Assembly (NCBI GenBank): GCA_964016885.1
Contig: OZ024745.1
Coordinates: forward strand, 56,792,001-56,856,000
Length of the DNA: 64,000 nucleotides
Source: Eledone cirrhosa
Taxonomy: Eukaryota
Direction of reading: 5' to 3'
Part shown: positions 1 through 47,710 of the stretch, one piece after another
How positions within the stretch are numbered: the stretch's first letter is position 1
Layout: every line of letters starts with the position of its first letter
Made by a program: the position numbers and the translations under genes
The notes under the pieces: generated by a model
Database searches by the model: none
Told to the model about the DNA's origin: nothing
What the model saw: the letters and a program-made list of their open reading frames with translations, nothing else

Positions 1-1523
1 CCACAGGGGAGACTTCCTCAACAAACCATCAGTCAGCCATATCAACCCCATACGTTCCGATATCGGCTCTATCAGCAAAAAGTTAGAGTTCTACCATCAC
101 TGCTGGCGGCTTCACCACTCCCACTCTGGAGCAGATTTCCGAGGCAATCACTTGGTTCCAAGAATTGCCCGATAAACGCCACACTCGTTTCCTGCAATTC
201 GACATAGAAGACTATTACGCTTCTATCTCAGAGCCCCTATTGAAGGATGCACTTGCTTTTGCCAGGAATGTTACCACCATAACCGACGCTCAGCAGGATG
301 TGATCCTCCACGCCGGTAAGACCTTTATACACCACGAAGGATCTTACTGGATCAACAAGAAGTCTGAGACCCCTTTCGACGTCAGCATGGGAGCAGGTGA
401 CTCGGCTGAAATTAGCGACCTCGTGGGCCAGTACATCCTATACCACGTGAAGAACCTCTTCACGGGCCTAACCGGAGGATTATACCGAGATGATGGCCTT
501 TTCGCCTTGCACAAAGTTAACCCCAGAACTACTGATGTGTTTCGTAGAAACTTAAGCTCGTTCTTCCGTAATCTAGGATTTAGAATAAGAATAGAATCTA
601 ATATGACTAGTGGCAACTTCTTAGATGTCACTCTCGACTTAGATACTTCCCTCTACCACAAACCTAACGAGTCCCTCAGATATATAAACGTTAATTCAAA
701 CTACCCCCAAAACATCACAGATAACTTAGTTAAAAACGTCTCACTCAGAATCCCTGGTCTCTCGGCCAATGAAGATATCTTTAGCGCCTCTGCCTATTAC
801 TACAACAACGCCCTCGCCCGCAGCGGATTTATAGAAAAGATTGCTTATCTAGAAACCACCCCAAAACTACCTAGGAGAAATAGGCATAGGCAGATTAGTT
901 GGTACAACTCCACCTTCAATAGAGAGGTTTCTACACCTATAAGTAGGACTTTCTTCAAATTGCTGAATATACACTTCCACACACAACATAGGTACTACAC
1001 TATTTTTAATAAGAATATAATACGACTCTCCTACTCCACTACACCTAACCTAGCTAGGAGTATATCCAATCTCAACACTACAAAATTAAATAAGGCTACT
1101 ACCTCCGAACCCAATCTCCGGACAGGAGCTTTGTGCGATTGCCAAAATAAGGTAACCTGCCCACTTGAAAACAAATGCCTGACAAATGACATTGTATATA
1201 AATGTGATGTCATCTCAGGCACTGATGACAACAACAAAAAGACCTACATCGGCATGACTTCCAACAAGTTTAAGAACCGGTGGTATGCTCATACCCACTC
1301 TTTCAGAAGACCGGACAAATCAAATCAGACAACACTCGCCTCCTATGTCTCAAAGGGAAAATACTCCAGAAAGCGCGCTCTTACAAGGGAGGACACAAGT
1401 GCTGTGCCCTTTGTATTTCAGAGAGCTACGAAATACTATTTGCCAAGGGCCAAATACCAAACAAACACTCTGAATACTGCCCGAGTTGCATGCAAAAAAC
1501 TTTGCTACTTTCTAATATCTTAA
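1..1523 (+). mobile_element. Penelope-like retroelement, RT + GIY-YIG endonuclease (ORF 165..1523, frameshifted near 1355; 5' part outside or at window edge)
   Basis: RT motifs LQFDIEDYY, SMGAGDSAEISDLVG, LYRDDGL, NFLDVTLDL, YHKPN..LRYINVNSNYP. Cys linker CDC..CPLENKC, then IVYKC...YIGMTSNKFKNRWYAH (GIY-YIG). The C-terminal CALCISESYEIL lies in another frame (ORF 1280..1654). Confidence 0.9.
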
Positions 1524-16431: not shown

Positions 16432-16598
16432 CACATAGAAATAATAATAAATGTGAAGACTAAAATCTAAAGAGGGCTCGATAAGGATAAATATATATCA
16501 AATATATCAGCACCCTAGACCAAATATTTATTAAAATAACAGATTAAAGTTTAACGGGATATGAAAGCAGCGATTTTTGCTTAAATTTTAATCTGTTA

Positions 16599-16629
<31 letters not shown>

Positions 16630-16712
16630 GTGTAAGATGTGAGTTTTATTGTAGTGCAATAAAGCAATGCAAATATCGTATAAGTAGCACTCTACAGTTT
16701 GTAGGACTGGAG

Positions 16713-16948
16713 TATATATAATATAAGATCAAAAGATGGTTAAAAGAGTTCCAAGTATTTTATTAGGCGCAATTCAAAAACAAATATCATCATGAGATGA
16801 TATCTGCGTTTTCATCAGATAAAATAGGGATACATGATATGAAGGTTAAAAAGCACTTGTGAATAGTGAAGTTTAAATTGTTTTTGAAATGCGCATAATA
16901 AAATACTTGCAACTATTTTAACCATCTTTTGATCTTATATTATATATA
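16713..16948. repeat. Foldback with ~70-bp arms containing outward-facing HHR-like motifs
   Basis: Arms 16713..16783 and 16878..16948. The minus strand has ttat-CTGATGA (16818..16812); the right arm has GAAA-TGCGCA-TA-ataa (from 16886). Confidence 0.75.
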
Positions 16949-17012
16949 TATATGTATGTAATCTTTCGTATTATATATATATATATATATATATAAATAA
17001 AATATATATATA

Positions 17013-17280
17013 TAATACAAAGACGAAAGGTTACACCTTCATTAAGTTCAATGGTTGGTGACGCGCGTTTCGCTACAAGGTTCGATCTGTATCGTTCTAG
17101 CCCGACTCTGGAATCAAAAGCTCGTCGGACCTCTGTCATCACTACAACAGAGGTCCGATGGGCTTTTAATTATAGAGTCCGGCTAGATCGACGGAGATCG
17201 AACCTTGAGCTGATCAATAGCGAAACGCGTGTCACCAACCAATAAACGTAATAAAGGAATAACCATTCCTCCTAGTATTA
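17013..17280. repeat. Foldback with ~125-bp arms, each an HHR-like module with a long helix II
   Basis: Arms 17013..17136 and 17147..17280; consensus ggt-CCGAYGR-gct..agc-GAAAC-GCGY-GTC-acc followed by aataaa. Confidence 0.8.
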
Positions 17281-17378
17281 TTATATTACTCTGTCTAGCT
17301 CTACACCTCGATACTGACATGAACCTAATCATCGAGGTTTCACCCGGGTGAACCTACAGTAACTCCGTGTTACACTCC

Positions 17379-17414
<36 letters not shown>

Positions 17415-17416
<2 letters not shown>

Positions 17417-17665
17417 CTTGCACCTGTTTGTAAACTTTATTGCATATTACAATTTGTTTCCATATCGATGAGTATGGGTTTTAACATTCGATAGAATTAC
17501 GACTCTTAATCGACACTTCTACAGACATGAAATTTTACATGGGTGATGCCAAAACTCTCATATCTGAAGAAGTATTGATTAAGAGTTGGGACCGCATCGC
17601 ATGATCAAACCTGAGCTGATCGACATGGAAACAAATTGTAATAAAGTTTACAAAAAGCTGCAATT
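17415..17665. repeat. Diverged foldback of a related long-helix-II HHR module
   Basis: Arms 17415..17530 and 17558..17665; right arm reads tat-CTGAAGA-..atcgacatg-GAAAC-aaatt-GTA-ata. Confidence 0.7.
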
Positions 17666-17799
17666 CTTATTATCACTTTATATAGACTCTGCTAACTAGA
17701 ACCACTTTAAACTTGGAACACAACATAACGATAGACGGATACAGTAACAACAACGTATGTCTCGACATGCGTCGTTGCTAGTGACTACAAATTAAGCAG

Positions 17800-17800
<1 letters not shown>

Positions 17801-17878
<78 letters not shown>

Positions 17879-17890: not shown

Positions 17891-20797
17891 AAAAACAAAA
17901 CAAAGGAATTACCACAAGAAATCTACTTGGCAAGAGAACATCAATCGCCAAATAAACCTTCTCCGATCTGACATATAAATTTTAACAAACTATTAAGTAG
18001 GTGAACATGTTAAACAAACTAAACTTAGAAAATTGAAAAAAAAATACAGTATAAAATCAACAAGTGACATAGACATGCTGATAGAAATAATCAAACAAAA
18101 AGTGTCGGCCAAAGCTGCTCGTATAAGGCGCTTTGAAAAACGATCTAGATTCTATAAGGACAATAATATGTTCAAAAACAACCAAAGAAACTTCTACAGA
18201 AAAATTGGTGAGTCAACAATAACTGCTAAATCAATACCACCCAAGGAGGAAGTGCAAGAATTCTGGGAAAAGATCTGGGCTGAAGAAAAAGTTCATAACA
18301 TACATGCCCCATGGATAAACAGACAAATGAAAGATACAGCTCACCTTGAGGAACAAATATGGGAAAATATAACAGTTGAACAGTTGCGCTTGGCTCTAAG
18401 AAAAACCAGCAAATGGAAATCCCCAGGAAAAGACAAAATACAAACTTTTGGATAAATGCCTTCACAGAGTCTCATGAGCTGTTAGCCCAACTTTACAATG
18501 AAATAGTTAAGGAGCCAGAAAAGATACCATCATGGCTAGTTAACGGCATTACATTCCTGCTTCCGAAGAATGATGAGACAAACAATCCCAAAAATTACAG
18601 ACCGATAACTTGCTTGACCACAATGTATAACATTTTAACATCAGTCCTAACTGAATACACATATGACCACCTGATAACAAATGACCTATTTCCCATTGAG
18701 CAGAAAGGGTGTAAACGAGGCTCATATGGCTGTAAGGATCAGCTTCTGGTTAACAAAATGATACTGGAAGATTGTCATAATAGACACAAAAATCTATCGA
18801 TTGCTTGGATAGATTATAAAAAAGCATTCGATAGTTTGCCACACAGTTGGATTGAAAAATGTTTAGAGATTTTCAAAATATCCCCCGTTGTCAGGAGGTT
18901 TTTGTCATTCAGTATGAAGACATGGAAAACGACACTCCTTTTGAATAGGGAAACAAAATCACTGGAAGCTGGAGAAGTTAATATTAATTGTGGAATTTTT
19001 CAGGGTGACTCTTTATCACCGCTTTTATTCTGCATCGCACTTATACCATTAAGTAAAATGTTCAATGAAACAAAACATGGATATAAAGTATATGACAAAA
19101 CCATTAATCACTTGTTCTACATGGATGACCTGAAACTATTTGCAAAAAATGATGAACAATTTCAAGGGCTATTATCCACTGTGGAGCAGTTCAGTGATGA
19201 CATTAAAATGGAGTTTGGACTAGACAAATGCGCCAAAGCAACGTTCACCAGAGGAAAGCTGCTGAAGATTTCAGACATTAATCTTGATCGGGGGAACGTT
19301 ATAAGAGAACTTGATCAAGAAAAAACTTACAAATATCTAGGTGTTTGTGAAGGAGACGGAATCAAGCACTCGACAATGAGGGAAAGGATAAGGAAGGATT
19401 GTTACCGCAGAGTAAGAGCAATCTTAAGAACGGAATTGAATGCAAGGAATAGGATCGATGCCATAAACACGCTTGTCATACCAGTAGTAACCTACAGTTA
19501 CAATGTCATCAACTGGTGAAGCACAGAGATCCGTAGGCTCGATACAAAAATTCGAAAACTCTTAACCATGCAAAGAATGCATCACCCTAAGGCAGATATA
19601 GATATAATATATCTCCCTAGGAAAGAAGGAGGACGTGGGTTAATCCAGTTAGACATTGCGTTGAAAACTGCAACAATTGGATTATCACATGATTGGATGA
19701 TCAAACTCGTTTTGAAACACGAAAGCATCAAAATATCATATTCCATTACAAAAGATGCACAAAGATACAGTAATGGACTACAAATTTCAGAAGTCCCATT
19801 TACTGCTGAAATGGAAAACACAGAAAAAGCAAAGCAGGTAAAAGTAACTGCAAAGAAAGAACTGCTACAGAAACTGTCTAAGAAATGGCAAGAAAAGCCT
19901 CTGTATGGAAAATACCCACAGCGAGCTAACAATCCTGATGTTTACAAAACTTTAACCCATCAGTGGTTGGCATCCTCTGGACTGAAATCGGAGACTGAAG
20001 GACTGATTATATCAGCACAAGATCAGTGTCTGCCAACAAAAAATTACCAAGCCAACATAATAAAAAATGGATGCAGCCCATTATGCCGTCTATGCAAAAA
20101 ACAACCAGAGACCATTGACCATATAATTTCAATGTGCAGTCCTATAGCTCCAGCTGAATACCTAAACAGGCATGACAGAGCTGCACAATGCATACATTGG
20201 ATAATGTGTAAGCATTTTGACCTGCCCCATCAAAAGAATTGGTGGGAGCATCAACCACCTCCCATACTTGAAAAAGATCACATCTCAATCTTGTGGAACT
20301 TTAGCATCCAAACAGACCGAAAAATAGATGCAAATAGACCTGATATAATATTGAAGGACTTCAAAAAGAGAGTATGCCTGCTAATTGATATGTCTGTTCC
20401 AATAGACAAGAATGTATCTATAAAAACATTTGAAAAATTGAGCAAGTATAACGACCTGGAGATAGAAATTGGAAAAATGTGGAAATTGAGAACTAAAACA
20501 ATACCAGTGGTTGTAGGCGCTCTGGGAATGATACCTAAGGGGTCTAATGATTACTTATCGCAAATCCCAGGAAACCCGCGTATAGGAGAAATACAAAAGA
20601 TAGTACTAATGGGAACTGCCCATATACTAAGGAAGATGCTGTCAATATAAGTACATCACAAGTCTAAACACTAAAGATGCATGTGTGAGTATGTATGTTC
20701 TTTCTTGAACATGGCGGACCTTGTTGTCTCTTGAGGTCACTGGTTGTGACTTGGTGATAACTCGTATGAACATAAAGCAAGATAAATGCAACTGTAA
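17891..20797 (+). mobile_element. R4/Dong-clade non-LTR retrotransposon (RT + CCHC + RLE), family A, 5'-truncated and disabled
   Basis: WKSPGKD, NYRPITCL, EQKGC..G.KDQLL, WIDYKKAFDS, GIFQGDSLSPLLF, HLFYMDD, CRLC..ETIDHI..C, RHD, NRPDII..LIDMSVP. Frameshift at ~18440 and TGA at 19517; flanked by (TAA)n on both sides. Confidence 0.92.
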
Positions 20798-24039: not shown

Positions 24040-27000
24040 AGGGCCCTTTCTGCCCGTGTGTTTGTTTGTTTATGTGTGTTCGTATACAGCGTGGTGATAA
24101 TGCCACACAAGGGCCAAGTGGGATGGCGGATCCACAGATGGCTATGTAAACATACATTCGCAAATCCTCGATAAGAGTGTTTAAATATCGAACATAAACA
24201 GTTCGAATAACGGTGAAATGGAGACTAGAACGTCATGTGACAGACTCTCACCCAACAGGTGCCCTCTGGCTCAGCAGCAGGAACCTGACTGTCAACCAAA
24301 TACTGCTGATGTTGGAGGAAGAAGAAGAAGGAAAGGGGCCAGAACCAACTGGACGAAAGAATTGAATAGAACTGTTATGCAATGCTACCTGAAAAGTAAC
24401 CCCAAGGAGAGGGGCTACAGGAGGCGGATGCATAACATCTGGAACGAGATTGGTTTATTTAAATTAGATGAACAAAAATTGGCCGGGCAGGCTCGGGTAA
24501 TAAGAACTAATGGGTGGATAAGCGAGCTGGAACTGGAGGAACTGAGCAGAGAGAATGGCTTGGAGATGGCGGGTGTAGTATGCCAGACAAGCGAGCCGGC
24601 GGGAAATGAAGGTGAGGAGGTCCTGAGAACGTAGGAACCACCCGAAGCAGACAATGATCTGAATACTGAGATAAATAATACCTGGAACAGAGATACGGCC
24701 ACTGAGGAGATGAATGCTGACGGGCTAGGACAAGATTCGGTTGACATCCTAAATTTAGTGGTAGATGAGTTGAACAATGATAGTGGGAGACCTATGAACC
24801 TAAGATTTGTAGACAGGAAAAAGTTAAAAGAAACAACAGCTAAGGTAAACAAAGTCATCCCATACCTTGAGGCGAGGAGTCTTCACCAGTGCAACAATAT
24901 CCTCAAAGCAACAGCAAATACGGTGAGGAAACTACTTGGTATAAAAGCGAGAGGAAACAACAGACAAGAAAGAGCAGAGCCGTGGTGGAAGAAGCGACTG
25001 AGTGGGCAAATCGGGGAAATGAGAAATGACATAGGAAAGCTTGAGTCACTACTGAATGGGACACTAAAAAACATAGGCACTAAAAATAGACTGGAAATAA
25101 AATACAAAACTAGGAGTAAAAAGCTAAATATTATCATAGAGGAATTGAAGCAACGCATTGTAGCAAAGAGTGCCAAAATCAGGCGATACGAGAACAGAGT
25201 CAGTCAGTATAAACAGAACCGCATGTTCGACAACAACCAGAAGATGCTGTTTGGACAGCTTGAGGGGAAAGAAAGAGGCAACGACTTGATCCCTGGGGCG
25301 GAACAAGCTAAAACATTCTGGAGAGGAATATGGGAGCAGGATGTTAGACACAATGCCCAGGCAGGGTGGATTGAGACAGTACAGAGGGAGATCGGTGAGC
25401 AGGCACAACAACAGACTGATTTGAGTATCACAGTTGAAACTCTTAAGGGGCAAGCCAAAAAACTAACCAACTGGAAATCACCAGGCCCAGATGGTGTGCA
25501 GGGGTATTGGATTAAACATTTAACATCCCTCCAGCCGAAGCTGACGGCCATGTTCAATGACTGCTTGGTGTCGGGTGAGGTGCCAGAGTGGTTGACAAAA
25601 GGTACCACAGTTCTGATAATGAAAGACCGAATCAAGGGTAATGATGTTACCAACTATAGACCTATCACATGTCTGCCCGTAATGTGGAAACTGTTGACGA
25701 GCATTGTGTCTGAGGAAATCTACCATCACCTCCACACAAACAACTTGTTACCGGACGAACAGAAAGGATGCCGAAAGAAGTCACGTGGTACAAAGGACCA
25801 GTTGCTTATTGATAAGATGGTAATGGGGAATTGCAGGAGGAGACACACTGATCTTGCCATGGGATGGATAGACTACAGAAGGGCATTTGACATGGTGCCT
25901 CATTCCTGGATCACCAAAAGCCTGGAGATCTTCAGGGTGGCAGATAACATCAGACAGTTGCTGGGCAGGAGTATGGGGTCCTGGGAGACAGAGTTGACAT
26001 CAACTGGAGTATCCTTGGGAGGCGTGAAGATCAAGAGAGGTATCTTCCAGGGAGATAGCCTGTCCCCTCTGTTGTTTGTCCTTGCCCTGATGCCCTTGAC
26101 CATTATGCTGCGAAAAGTGAGAGCAGGATACAAGTTGGGAAGGGGAGAGCTTACCATCAATCACCTCCTCTTCATGGACGATCTTAAGCTCTTCGGGAAA
26201 AGTGAGAAGGAGTTGGATGTGCTTGTTGACACTGTCCGTATTTTCAGCAGTGATATACGTATGCAGTTTGGTATTGCTAAATGTGGAGTCATTGTGATGA
26301 AGAGGGGTAGGTTGAGCAGAAGTAACGGGATCCAGATACCAACAGGTGAGATGATAAAGGAAATTGACTCTGAGGAAGGATACAAGTATTTGGGCGTTCT
26401 GGAGGCTGATGGCATAAAGAACAAAAAAATGAAGGAATTGTTAAGAACTGAATACATTCGGAGAGTAAGGAGCGTATTGAAGTCACATCTGAACAGCAGA
26501 AATGCCATAAGCGCAGTAAATTCCCGAGCTGTGTCTATTATTAGGTACAGTGCGGGAATTCTGAGATGGAATGTTGCTGAACAAAAAGAAATGGATAGGA
26601 AGACTAGGAAGCTATTGACTATCTACAACATGTTCCACAAGAGGAGTGATGTCGATAGACTCTACCTAAGGAGATCTGAGGGTGGAAGAGGTCTTATCAG
26701 CATAGAGGACTGTGTTCAGATGGAGAAAAACAACCTATACAAATACGTGACCTATAGTAAGGAGCCAATGCTCAGAGCTGTACTGAAGGAGGGGACAGTA
26801 GGCCAGGGGATATCCAAGGAGGAAATAACATCAAGGAGGAAGAGCAGCCTTAAGGGAAAATCCCTTCATAGTACCTTCTTTGAGAAAACTGAATTTAGAG
26901 ATCCACAGACATGGAACTGGTTGAGAAGAGGAGACCTCAAAAAGGCTACAGAAGGAATGCTAATGGCTGCGCAGGAGCAGGCCCTCAAAACGAAGTGGTT

Positions 27001-27690
27001 GAAGCACCATATCTACAAGGAGGAGGCTAGCCCACTGTGCAGGATCTGTGGAGAGAGAGAGGAGACTGTGGCTCACATTGTGTCCGAGTGTAAACACCTA
27101 GCCCAGACCCACTATAAGGGCTGGAGACACGATGTGATGGGCAGGGTAATCCACTGGCACCTGTGCAAAGTAAACAATCTACCACATTCTGAGAAATGGT
27201 ATGAGCATAGGCCAGAGGCGGTGATGGAGAACAGTCAGGTGAAGGTGCTGTGGGATTTTAGGATACAGACGGACAAAAAACTGGAACACAATAGGCCTGA
27301 CCTGGTGGTTGTGGACAAAGAAAAAAGATCGTGCCTGATTGTGGATGTGGCCTGCCCGTTCGACACGAGAGTGCAAGAGAAGGAGAGGGAGAAAATTAAC
27401 CGATACCAGGACCTAAAGTGGGAGGTGAAAAGGATTTGGAACTGCCATGAAGTCAAAGTGATCCCGATTGTCATAGGCGCACTGGGGACTATCTCCAAAG
27501 GTTTCCAGGGATGGTTAAAGAAAATCGGCCCCTTCACGCTTTTTGGAACGCTTCAAAAGGCATGCTTGCTTGGAACAGCAAGAACCCTCCGATACGTCCT
27601 GAATATCTGAGGCTGCAGGTAGTGGCTTGATATTCAATCCAACGGACTTTCCAGTTAACCAACATCAATGACTGAGATTCAAGGAATAAC
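24040..27690 (+). mobile_element. Near full-length R4/Dong-clade retrotransposon, family B
   Basis: Putative 5' UTR, long ORF and short 3' UTR ending in (TAA/CAA)n at ~27686. The 5' boundary is approximate. Confidence 0.92.
24218..27610 (+). CDS. RT-CCHC-restriction-like endonuclease polyprotein, 1130 codons, interrupted by a single in-frame TAG at 24632..24634
   Basis: ORFs 24218..24634 and 24710..27610 are in the same frame with no other stop between them. Motifs WTKELNRTVMQCY..EQKLAGQARVI, WKSPGPDG, QGDSLSP, FMDD, CRIC..ETVAHIVSEC, RHD, NRPDLVV..IVDVACP, KINRYQDL. Confidence 0.85.
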
Positions 27691-37447: not shown

Positions 37448-37589
37448 TATATATATATAAATACATATATATATACATATATATTTGCATATATATATAT
37501 AGATACATATATATATATACATATATATATATGTATATTTATACATACATATATATATTTATACATACTTATATATAGATAAGATAAGT

Positions 37590-37755
37590 TTATACCGGGT
37601 TCAATCGGGGGTAACCATATTACGTAAGATACTCAAGACAAAGCAGAGTATAAATATTTAATATAGAAAGGCTTCTACAGAACTAGAACTGCTTCATTCT
37701 GGAGAAATCATCAGGAATCCTAATGATTTCTCCGGAATGAAACCGTCCTGTAGAC
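37590..37755. mobile_element. PLE pLTR (minus strand) fused back-to-back to a short inverted HHR remnant
   Basis: tcatcagga-a-tcctaatga centred at 37717; left part homologous to 2950..3080. Confidence 0.8.
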
Positions 37756-40506: not shown

Positions 40507-41092
40507 ATATTGTTATACTTGGGGAGGGTCATATTTGTGTAATATTGCCAGAATTAATAACAGAACACACGCAGTGTTTGGTTGGTTTTCGCTTTTCGTT
40601 TCTGTGTCTTTTATATCGGTAATCTAATTTATTCGGTCCTCAATATGCCATTGACTGACCGATGGTCAAAAATAATACAGATACAATATAGATACAAACA
40701 CATATATATAGTTTATCAAAGTTCTTTCGTTGCACACCTGCAACATCGTCAGTGGTGCTATAGATTCCTCCCCCGTTGCATTGTATTTCTACGCCATCTT
40801 TATCTAAAGATGGCGTAGAAATACAATGCAACGGGGGAGGAATCTATAGCACCACTGACGATGTTGCAGGTGTGCAACGAAAGAACTTTGATAAACTATA
40901 TATATGTGTTTGTATCTATATTGTATCTGTATTATTTTTGACCATCGGTCAGTCAATGGCATATTGAGGACCGAATAAATTAGATTACCGATATAAAAGA
41001 CACAGAAACGAAAAGCGAAAACCAACCAAACACTGCGTGTGTTCTGTTATTAATTCTGGCAATATTACACAAATATGACCCTCCCCAAGTAT

Positions 41093-45683: not shown

Positions 45684-46148
45684 TTGGCTGGAGAGAAAAA
45701 AGAAAGTGATTTGACACCTAATTAATATTAGCTCTCCTGAACGCGTTATGGGGATTCAACAATACTTAGATAACAAATAGACATGTAGTGTCAACAGGGA
45801 AAAACTGCACTTACATTACACAAACTTAAACAAAATGACATCTTAGTGACTGAGAACATACTTATTACAAAATGTGGTCTATTGTTTTGATTTGTGTTTT
45901 TCTTCGTTTATCTCTATATTCAACGTGGATATTTGTTTTTAGCTGTCAAGTTCGTCACAATCGCGTTTTCGCACTGAAAGTTCTAAATGTGAGAATTTCA
46001 AGATTTTTTCAAGAAATATAATTATCCTATTTAGAAGGTGAATTGATTCCAATGTAGTGTTGAAAATATAATCATATCATACATAATCTATATGAAAATG
46101 CAATACCTGGCGAACTGTTGTATTACTACTTCTATATATATATATAGG

Positions 46149-46257
46149 AAAATGTTTAACCACCACGGCAGAGCTCAAGCCGTTTCGACGGCTATTTCTG
46201 GACTCCAGAAATAGCTGTCGAAACGGCTTGAGCTCTGCCGTCAGGGTTAAACATTTT
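46149..46257. repeat. Palindrome with 54-bp arms, each containing the 3' half of a hammerhead
   Basis: Centre at 46203, 50/54 identity; the right arm reads GAAAC-GGC ttgagctct GCC-GTC-agggtt. Confidence 0.85.
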
Positions 46258-46339
46258 ACTCTACTACACTAAGTATTGAGTACTCTGGTGCGTTATGGTC
46301 CATCTGGTTCCTTACCACACCTCCTTCGTTATATATATA

Positions 46340-47710
46340 TAAAAGAAAACTTTTTTTGCTCAACAAGGCTGAATACAATATATGTAATCTGAGTTTTTCG
46401 AATATTAATAATAACATTCGATTCGATTGCAATTATGCAAACAAGCCTCAATTTTATAGCCATGGCATTTTGGTTAGGGTTTAGATTTTTATTATTAATT
46501 CTATTTATATTTTGTGCTATATTCATAGTAGTAGGATAGTTTTATAGTATGTCTGTTAAAGATTGAGTGGTATCTGTGGACTTTAGGAAAACATTTATCT
46601 AGTGCTTTAAAGAATAGCTTGCTAAAGGTGTTTTAACGCTTAATGAGAATGGGGGTGAGTACCAACTAATTGTTTCTACTTTTTGGCACAATGCCACCAA
46701 ATACCCAGTGCATTACTGGTACTTTATTTTATCGACCCCGTAAGGATGAAAGGCAAAGTTAACCTCGGCGGGATTTGAGTACCAAATAATATTTCTAGTT
46801 CTATTTCCTCTGTTAGATTTAGAGTTTAAGTTAGATTTTTTATTATAATTATAATTAATAGTAGGGTTATTTGCCTTATTACTGTTGTCGATGTATTTAA
46901 TCTTATTTATATAGCCTGCTCTTTTTAAAACCTCATTATAATATTCTGCCTTATCGTCAAAAATGTTTTTATTAGCGGAGATGCGTGAAATACGTTGTTG
47001 GATAGAATTGACAATAGTGTTCTTGATAGATCTAGAATGATTAGAGTTAAAACTTACATAGTTTAGATTCTCATTAATTTTATGGAATGGATAGTAGAGC
47101 CCTGTGCTACGGTTTAATGTTACGTCTAAAAAGTTAACAATTTTATAGTTATTCTCTATTTCTAACTTAAGGTTGTAGCTATTGAAGAATTGTATTATGG
47201 ATTTTCTTTTTCTATTAATTTCAGAATTACTACGATTTTCAATTAAAAGCAGCATATCATCACGATATAAACCTCCGGTCATCTCTGGTATTTTTCTATG
47301 CAGTGTATTATTAATAAATTGCCCCCACAAGATCCGTTATTTGCGTCGATTCTGATGATCCCGTGGTGATATCAAAATTATTTTTTATCGGCTCTAGTCC
47401 AGAGATGATTGTTGAATTCAATAAAAGTTTTCCGTGCGGTTAAAATGATATGCATTTCAGATCAATGTGTATGTTTAGATGCATACATTAGAGCTTTATT
47501 AAGTAAATTAGGAATCCTGGAGGAGTAGTAGTTTTCAATATCCAATTGAATGAATTTTTTGTTATGTTTAAATGTTATGGTATTGAACCAATCTATAACT
47601 TTGTTATTACCGTTCCATAGGTAAGATATTTCTTTAAGTTGCGGTATATGTTTACTAACTATGCCTAAGTCTGCTTTAGATGGGGCTATAAGTCTGACTG
47701 GTAGTTCTAT
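46340..47710 (-). mobile_element. Degenerate Penelope-like RT, same lineage as 1..1523
   Basis: FIQLDIENYYSS, MTGGLYRDDML, NFLDVTLN, YYPFHKINENLNYVSFNSNH, RNIIWY; interrupted by a SINE. Confidence 0.85.
46671..46778 (-). mobile_element. 5'-truncated SINE inserted in the PLE with a ~15-bp TSD
   Basis: tgagtaccaaCtaat (46656..46670) and tgagtaccaaAtaat (46776..46790). Confidence 0.85.

Follow-up and report, generated by a model that had tools for sequence, protein, structure and literature searches.

The three foldbacks at 16713-17665 of the window (the 64,000-nucleotide stretch of Eledone cirrhosa DNA analysed here) are likely to be short pLTR insertions of Penelope-like elements (PLEs) that target TA tracts, with a mirror arm made at each insertion from two opposite-strand cDNAs. 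The layout, the TA targeting and the opposite-strand hammerhead pairs are already published, and what we describe here are new families of a described clade. Their value is mechanistic, in that thousands of young short copies with a tail on one arm and none on the other form a natural record favouring two tail-end-primed cDNAs. Our search of mostly open-access literature listed no account of these families, nor any of PLE foldbacks arising from two cDNAs.

A sequence-only reading of the window had described three inverted repeats split by TA runs, with their 3' ends pointing outward, and these are present where it placed them. The arms of the first (16713-16783 and 16878-16948) are 71 nt long and 94% identical. 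Those of the second span approximately 17012-17136 and 17147-17281 at 83-84% identity, and those of the third span 17445-17536 and 17552-17643 at 76% identity in the ungapped core, with the repeat reaching approximately 17415-17665. The bounds given for each unit hold for the arms, but they leave outside the one-sided tails at 16628-16712, approximately 17283-17380 and approximately 17683-17806. The cluster also holds four stumps rather than three, the fourth (F0) directly adjoining at approximately 16440-16605. Similar layouts had been claimed at 37717, 40803 and 46203, and all three are foldbacks. The features are as follows.

16440-16556, minus strand: tail-bearing arm of F0, another Hydra-type pLTR; starts at approximately the hammerhead cleavage site
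16557-16605, plus strand: short inverted arm of F0, with only the 3' half of its own hammerhead
16628-16712, minus strand: family-1 tail, approximately 85 nt, on one arm only, running into (TA)n
16713-16877, minus strand: family-1 long arm (pLTR positions 12-176), Hydra-clade PLE
16756-16826, minus strand: predicted family-1 type I minimal hammerhead with 8-bp stem I, long stem II and GCGC loop III
16878-16948, plus strand: family-1 short tail-less inverted arm (pLTR positions 106-176), with the hammerhead 3' half only
16949-17011, no strand: TA-rich spacer, target remnant
17012-17136, minus strand: family-2 tail-less arm (positions 18-157), predicted hammerhead at 17057-17131
17132-17282, plus strand: family-2 long arm, beginning at position 3 and overlapping its partner arm by 5 nt, predicted hammerhead at 17152-17236
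17283-17380, plus strand: family-2 tail, approximately 100 nt, one-sided, running into (TA)n
17381-17414, no strand: (TA)n spacer
17415-17551, minus strand: family-3 tail-less arm (from position 10)
17552-17682, plus strand: family-3 arm (from position 25), predicted hammerhead at 17559-17643
17683-17806, plus strand: family-3 tail, ending early at the (TAA)n array that lies before a LINE
37586-37752, no strand: short foldback of a further family, with a left-hand tail
40517-41090, no strand: perfect foldback, 287-nt arms 100% identical
46143-46330, no strand: short foldback of a frequent family, with a right-hand tail and only the 3' half of a hammerhead-like motif

Each of the three insertions thus listed consists of a tail-bearing arm and a tail-less inverted arm. 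All three foldbacks belong to multicopy families, and sequence comparison shows the families of foldbacks 2 and 3 to be homologous to each other. In aligned copies, each family comprises an arm of approximately 160-176 nt and a one-sided tail of approximately 85-120 nt ending in TA. The tail is on exactly one arm in 50/50 family-1, 23/30 family-2 and 18/21 family-3 foldbacks. Seven family-2 foldbacks (two with partly deleted tails) and two family-3 foldbacks were scored as tail-less, and one family-3 foldback carries two tails. The one-sided tail of family 1 is not an effect of the query, because 30 of its loci were fetched by a tail-free query.

The genome searched is 3.0 Gb in size and microsatellite-rich. 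A first look returned 3374 candidates for foldback 2, 1392 for foldback 1 and 702 for foldback 3, of which 40 each were scored, so these figures are not copy numbers. Sampled loci are the best 30 of 40 scored matches and lean to young copies. Across 200 kb taken at 20 round-number positions, family 1 and family 2 each occur once, both as inverted pairs, and family 3 is absent. Summed contig depth over family-1 arms is approximately 0.3-1.0 million, against 10-14 on unique flank; this is not a copy number, and it points to many thousands of copies in the genome.

The foldback itself is not the amplified unit. The sequence-only reading had proposed MITE-like double-hammerhead units forming a distinct non-autonomous system, and had named recurring centres as the test. 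We ran that test on a centre-unbiased sample, using the 3' end of the arm plus the tail as query and taking 30 loci per family (window copies included). Inverted pairs make up 22/30, 14/30 and 12/30 of the loci in families 1, 2 and 3, and the other 42/90 copies are solo or upstream-extended arms without an inverted partner, so that solo arms are about as common as foldbacks. Junctions are distinct in 22/22, 14/14 and 12/12 of these foldbacks. With centre-selected loci added, there are 41 junction types in 50 foldbacks of family 1, 22 in 30 of family 2 and 21 in 21 of family 3, a junction and arm comparison that includes one mis-parsed pair (L069). The arms overlap in every recurring junction type, which equates to microhomology, and five family-1 types are each seen 2-5 times among 50 loci.

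Amplification of the whole foldback as a MITE-sized double-ribozyme unit is therefore largely refuted by the junction data, and we consider it very improbable. Centre-selected searches do return many full foldbacks of similar size, and the window's family-2 junction, a 5-nt microhomology, is seen in 10/30 family-2 foldbacks. That tenfold recurrence is due to centre selection, however, since the same centre appears in 0/13 other foldbacks of the unbiased sample. Of the 10 copies, moreover, 3 have a tail-bearing long arm, 3 a tail-bearing short arm and 4 no tail at all, and they fall into at least two subfamilies. The window's family-1 junction occurs once among 50 loci. MITEs and foldback transposons are fixed units with symmetric termini; here we find asymmetric tails, solo arms and variable centres, and no DNA-transposon termini or transposase link was seen for the foldbacks. 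Head-to-tail tandem arrays, a retrozyme trait, were likewise absent among the 90 centre-unbiased loci.

The two arms of a copy resemble each other more than they resemble the arms of other copies. At non-CpG sites, a copy's own arms differ by 2.7, 7.2 and 11.0% in families 1, 2 and 3, compared with 5.4, 11.5 and 12.9% between copies. Derived bases are common to both arms of one copy approximately 4 times as often as between copies, and a copy's own arm ranks within the closest tenth of foreign arms in 29/49, 16/30 and 6/20 cases, respectively. This likeness would fit both arms having been copied from one source at insertion, with later gene conversion as another possible cause.

Motifs and (TA)n insertion identify family 1 as the pLTR of a Hydra-clade PLE. 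Six family-1 loci extend upstream into common sequence, and three of these reach a GIY-YIG frame approximately 1.2 kb away. With that frame as query, 150 scored matches show 83-96% identity apart from the self match. Locus L237 has the direct order of arm plus tail, ORF, 3' UTR, and arm plus tail, and the first tail continues towards the ORF. Open frames in L237 and L235 span 715 and 760 aa and contain YRDD. The family-1 ORF, lying between direct pLTRs in a unit of approximately 3.9 kb with a 1.2-kb 3' UTR, encodes an RT plus a C-terminal GIY-YIG endonuclease (EN). The latter matches PF01541 at E 0.004, which is under the curated cut-off, and the ORF has 203 homologues at E<=1e-20, nearly all unnamed. 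It carries DKT, a CxCx5C linker, CxxC and CxH late in the EN, and RWI at the N-terminal place that matches the Hydra-clade RWK, with no CCHH between GIY and YIG. Among endonuclease-selected loci, a family-1 arm lies downstream in 23/25, and 8 of those loci have an inverted tail-bearing arm upstream and a tail-less arm downstream of the ORF. These ORF-bearing copies repeat the arrangement of the stumps at greater length. Family 1 displays the inverted 5'-truncated copy and one-sided tail that are a trait of EN+ PLEs.

Linking each pLTR family to a PLE, as had been suggested, succeeded through this ORF for family 1. For family 3 it led to one CxCx5C/EN remnant approximately 700 nt upstream, in L185. 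For family 2, the search covered 14 copies that include upstream sequence, plus three longer stretches, and found no ORF; within it, L261-L263 represent local duplications, as do L266/L267. In each of the three families, longer copies reach upstream of the position at which 5' ends pile up. A tree built from 93 arms has short family-1 copies mixed among ORF-linked pLTRs, with 18 label changes in the best tree and at least five forced by well-supported branches, overall support being weak (176 columns). Compared with shuffles, the short/ORF-linked label remains more clustered, owing in part to an endonuclease search that favoured one subfamily. Tree rows L235_1/L236_1 represent a second, tail-to-tail element, itself ORF-linked in L236. 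The two family-1 elements lie tail to tail at L235:7252-7665 and L236:2097-2531, apparently one region duplicated. L235:3710-5989 also has an asparagine-rich stretch between RT and endonuclease, like rotifer Penelope elements (PMC3846280).

Other families in the window connect to PLEs as well. At L258:4115-7873, two inverted arms of the 40803 family enclose a PLE ORF of Neptune type (DKS, CX4CxxC linker), and the layout is therefore not limited to the Hydra clade. The F0 family lies approximately 200 nt behind an RT and GIY-YIG ORF in L175; it is very abundant, with a contig depth of approximately 1 million. At 87-1523 (plus strand) the window holds a Hydra-type PLE ORF remnant with RT, CxCx5C and GIY-YIG, for which a first look gave 46,257 candidates in the genome. 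This ORF was rejected as the parent of families 1-3, matches near its 30 loci being scattered. A recurrent TGA in the same search likely reflects a frameshift in the query rather than selenocysteine. A second PLE RT remnant at 46713-47336 (minus strand) is near the 46203 foldback.

For the origin of the mirror arm from two cDNAs, we infer the order of steps from end products. The element protein would nick both strands of a TA tract, and each nick would prime reverse transcription inside the RNA, one at each tail end, with the anole PLE as model. Priming at the transcript's first tail would yield a cDNA of approximately 260 nt, extending to the RNA 5' end or to a hairpin stop. The two cDNAs would anneal at a short microhomology and be filled in, and survival of one cDNA would leave a solo arm. 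Several features of the copies bear on these steps. Of the two arms, one stops at the tail's far end and the other at the near end, and both of these ends run into (TA)n. Junctions vary between copies, often with an arm overlap of a few bases. The 5' ends fall within -5 to +10 of one position in 19/53, 12/45 and 16/42 arms of families 1, 2 and 3, solos and foldbacks alike, and long copies of family 3 have a TATA-like word approximately 30 nt upstream of this pile-up. The pile-up probably marks a transcription start, a hairpin stop being the alternative. Against the two-cDNA reading stand the recurring junctions (10/30 in family 2 and five family-1 types seen 2-5 times), the tail-less foldbacks (seven in family 2, two in family 3), the two-tailed family-3 copy, the failure to find a family-2 ORF and the single EN remnant of family 3.

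The mirror arm could instead arise by self-priming, with one cDNA or antisense RNA from the same parent and at the same target folding back at the short palindrome close to the pLTR 5' end and copying itself, as Arkhipova et al. 2013 (PMC3846280) argued for an antisense template. A short palindrome or hairpin marks the 5' end of every family, some centres are symmetric (L052, L123), and the likeness of the arms within a single copy also agrees with that published proposal. A snap-back of a tail-primed cDNA, however, predicts a tail on the longer arm or on both. In family 1 (n=50; partly selection-biased) the longer arm bears the tail in 14 foldbacks, the shorter in 32 and one of two equal arms in 4, and no foldback has it on both, which argues against a single snap-back cDNA. 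Most junctions also lie far from the 5' palindrome, and we regard self-priming as unlikely. Arm plus tail (approximately 260 nt) could also be an independent SINE-like non-autonomous element, self-transcribed and PLE-mobilised, with the foldback still made at insertion. Sharp 5' ends, the many solo copies and the lack of an ORF found for family 2 agree with this, and non-autonomous PLE derivatives are described in PMC8557442 and bioRxiv 10.64898/2026.07.22.740005. The interleaving of short family-1 arms with ORF-linked pLTRs (in the weakly supported tree) and the longer upstream-extended copies in all three families speak against it, and we hold it to be improbable. A bolder version would make the approximately 260-nt RNAs, above all those of family 2 (U4C, no ORF found), self-propagating SINE-like Penelope parasites that borrow a TATA box from the TA tract and that, via two-ended priming, seeded tens of thousands of long hairpins as a major dsRNA source for editing and silencing; this too seems doubtful.

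The preference for TA that the sequence-only reading had noted is confirmed. (TA)4 is present within approximately 20 nt of the tail end in 28/30 family-1, 24/33 family-2 and 13/24 family-3 copies, compared with 7.4% of background 20-mers, and near the tail-less end in 21/21, 6/12 and 5/9. Older families score lower. On the two-cDNA reading, every insertion would leave TA on both sides, and later insertions could stack alongside. At 12/87 loci, a second family out of the seven tested is found no more than 150 nt away, compared with 3.2% of background points, and stacking is therefore common.

The reading of the arms as PLE pLTRs that carry type I minimal hammerheads is borne out at the level of families, where the predicted motifs are credible. 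They have the core letters, a stem I adjoining the core, a long stem II (36-60 nt here) and a loop III that is palindromic. Pairing in family 1 holds for 97% of cells, compared with 33-62% when the partners are slid, and the pairing changes are many, all one-sided and pair-keeping. Eight two-sided changes in family 1 were discounted, since a single unrelated row (L137:268-366) apparently accounts for them, with one cell per pair. The two double changes seen between families 2 and 3 represent one event each. A descriptor scan found 14 motifs in 264 kb, compared with 0-2 in five shuffles, each family having its own complementary stem I, and 4/13 of the random-sample motifs form two head-to-head pairs. 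Genome-wide, family-1 loci pass the descriptor on both strands in 6/30, on one in 16/30 and on none in 8/30. The strict descriptor passes 0/30 family-2 loci because their stem II is interrupted after 3 bp, which reflects a limitation of the descriptor itself. Rfam gave no hammerhead among 29 matches in 16630-17800 at E<=10, or among the matches listed for the window (150 of 189). An intact arm elsewhere was also missed (0/3 matches), so the Rfam negative does not discriminate.

Individual copies are in a poorer state. Hammerheads would arrive with the pLTR of the parent and degrade once inserted, and those in the window appear mostly decayed, with no window foldback retaining two predicted intact ribozymes. 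Among the six arms of foldbacks 1-3, none passes the strict descriptor and two pass the relaxed one. A hammerhead core had been claimed for both arms of each foldback, which fails for the right arm of foldback 1, where only the 3' half is present. In the full arm of foldback 1, GAAA has become GAAT, with loss of A15.1 and the 15.2-16.2 pair. The family-2 hammerhead at 17057-17131 combines a U4C core with a stem II that has lost 10 nt, and that at 17152-17236 has A9 changed to G. In family 3, the tail-less arm has core A6 changed to T, and the motif at 17559-17643 has an intact core but lacks 7 nt from the 3' strand of stem I. In family 2, the actual 5' core is the U4C variant upstream of the long stem II; position 4 is mostly C, with CCGACGA in 29/61 arms and U4 in 7, and U4C is reported to lower hammerhead activity (PMC3088659). 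A CTGATCA beside GAAA was rejected as the family-2 core, as stem I is unpaired there and the word is the 3' strand of stem II. The F0 core has A at position 4 (U4A; CAGAAGA in 13/14 family rows) and a long helix III, seen in L175, L242 and L258.

Long dsRNA hairpins, as had been expected of these loci, would form if the foldbacks are transcribed, with predicted folding energies between -97 and -169 kcal/mol for those in the window. To form the ribozyme instead would cost a predicted 62-92 kcal/mol where foldbacks are near-symmetric, 12 in one that is very asymmetric and 6 in a solo arm. Self-cleavage from either strand, also expected, is unlikely because the ribozyme in a symmetric foldback is predicted to lose 60-90 kcal/mol relative to the hairpin. 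The term double hammerhead therefore overstates the window foldbacks, whose hairpins would bury their ribozymes. A perfect foldback at L246:1560-2050 has a descriptor-passing hammerhead in both arms, and by this measure there are true double hammerheads among the young copies.

Craig et al. 2021 (PMC8557442) describe inverted truncated PLE copies with one-sided tails and a TA bias, with almost all Hydra-clade families inserting into (TA)n. The Hydra-clade EN+ PLEs reported there share with ours the C-terminal GIY-YIG, DKT, RW, CxCx5C and the lack of CCHH, as well as the pLTR hammerhead, (TA)n insertion, inverted 5'-truncated copy and one-sided tail (Fig. 2 of that paper). The families here differ in having tails of 85-120 nt rather than 30-40 nt, in the approximately 3.9-kb unit of family 1 with its 1.2-kb 3' UTR and in RWI, and most of the copies sampled here are pLTR-only stumps. 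How PLEs form inverted ends is posed as unsolved in the same paper, and the present copies single out the protein, RNA and target with which PLE inversion could be tested directly. The PLE minimal hammerheads of Cervera and de la Pena 2014 (PMC4209133) are likewise type I with a long stem II and a tiny palindromic helix III, and are mostly solitary. That study reports opposite-strand hammerhead pairs 100-700 bp apart in Schistosoma. The motifs predicted here differ in the 36-60-nt stem II, the family-wide U4C of family 2 and the U4A of F0.

The Adineta vaga Penelope elements described in PMC3846280 share head-to-head inverted pLTRs, junction palindromes, a one-sided tail and solo pLTRs with the copies here, whose tail-side counts fit two cDNAs better than the self-priming proposed there. 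In vitro, the anole PLE PAc acts on AT-rich DNA by cutting and extending both of its strands (Frangieh et al. 2024, PMC11167929), with two internal start sites bounding the tail and a hammerhead that is dispensable for insertion. PAc belongs to the Poseidon clade and has its tail inside the ORF, whereas here the tail is upstream of the ORF, and the joining of two cDNAs that we propose lies outside what that in vitro account demonstrates for PAc. Animal non-LTR retrozymes (PMC7229834; bioRxiv 10.64898/2026.07.22.740005) are also short, non-coding, tied to pLTRs and equipped with type I hammerheads, and the latter source treats them as PLE derivatives. Retrozymes are head-to-tail tandems, whereas the copies here are solos or head-to-head pairs with a PLE tail.

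For annotation, these stumps could be mistaken for MITEs or microRNA hairpins. The window also contains two non-LTR retrotransposons with an RT and a zinc-binding domain, at 17997-20650 and 24185-27610 (both plus strand), beside (TAA)n arrays; the two may resemble the R4/Dong group.
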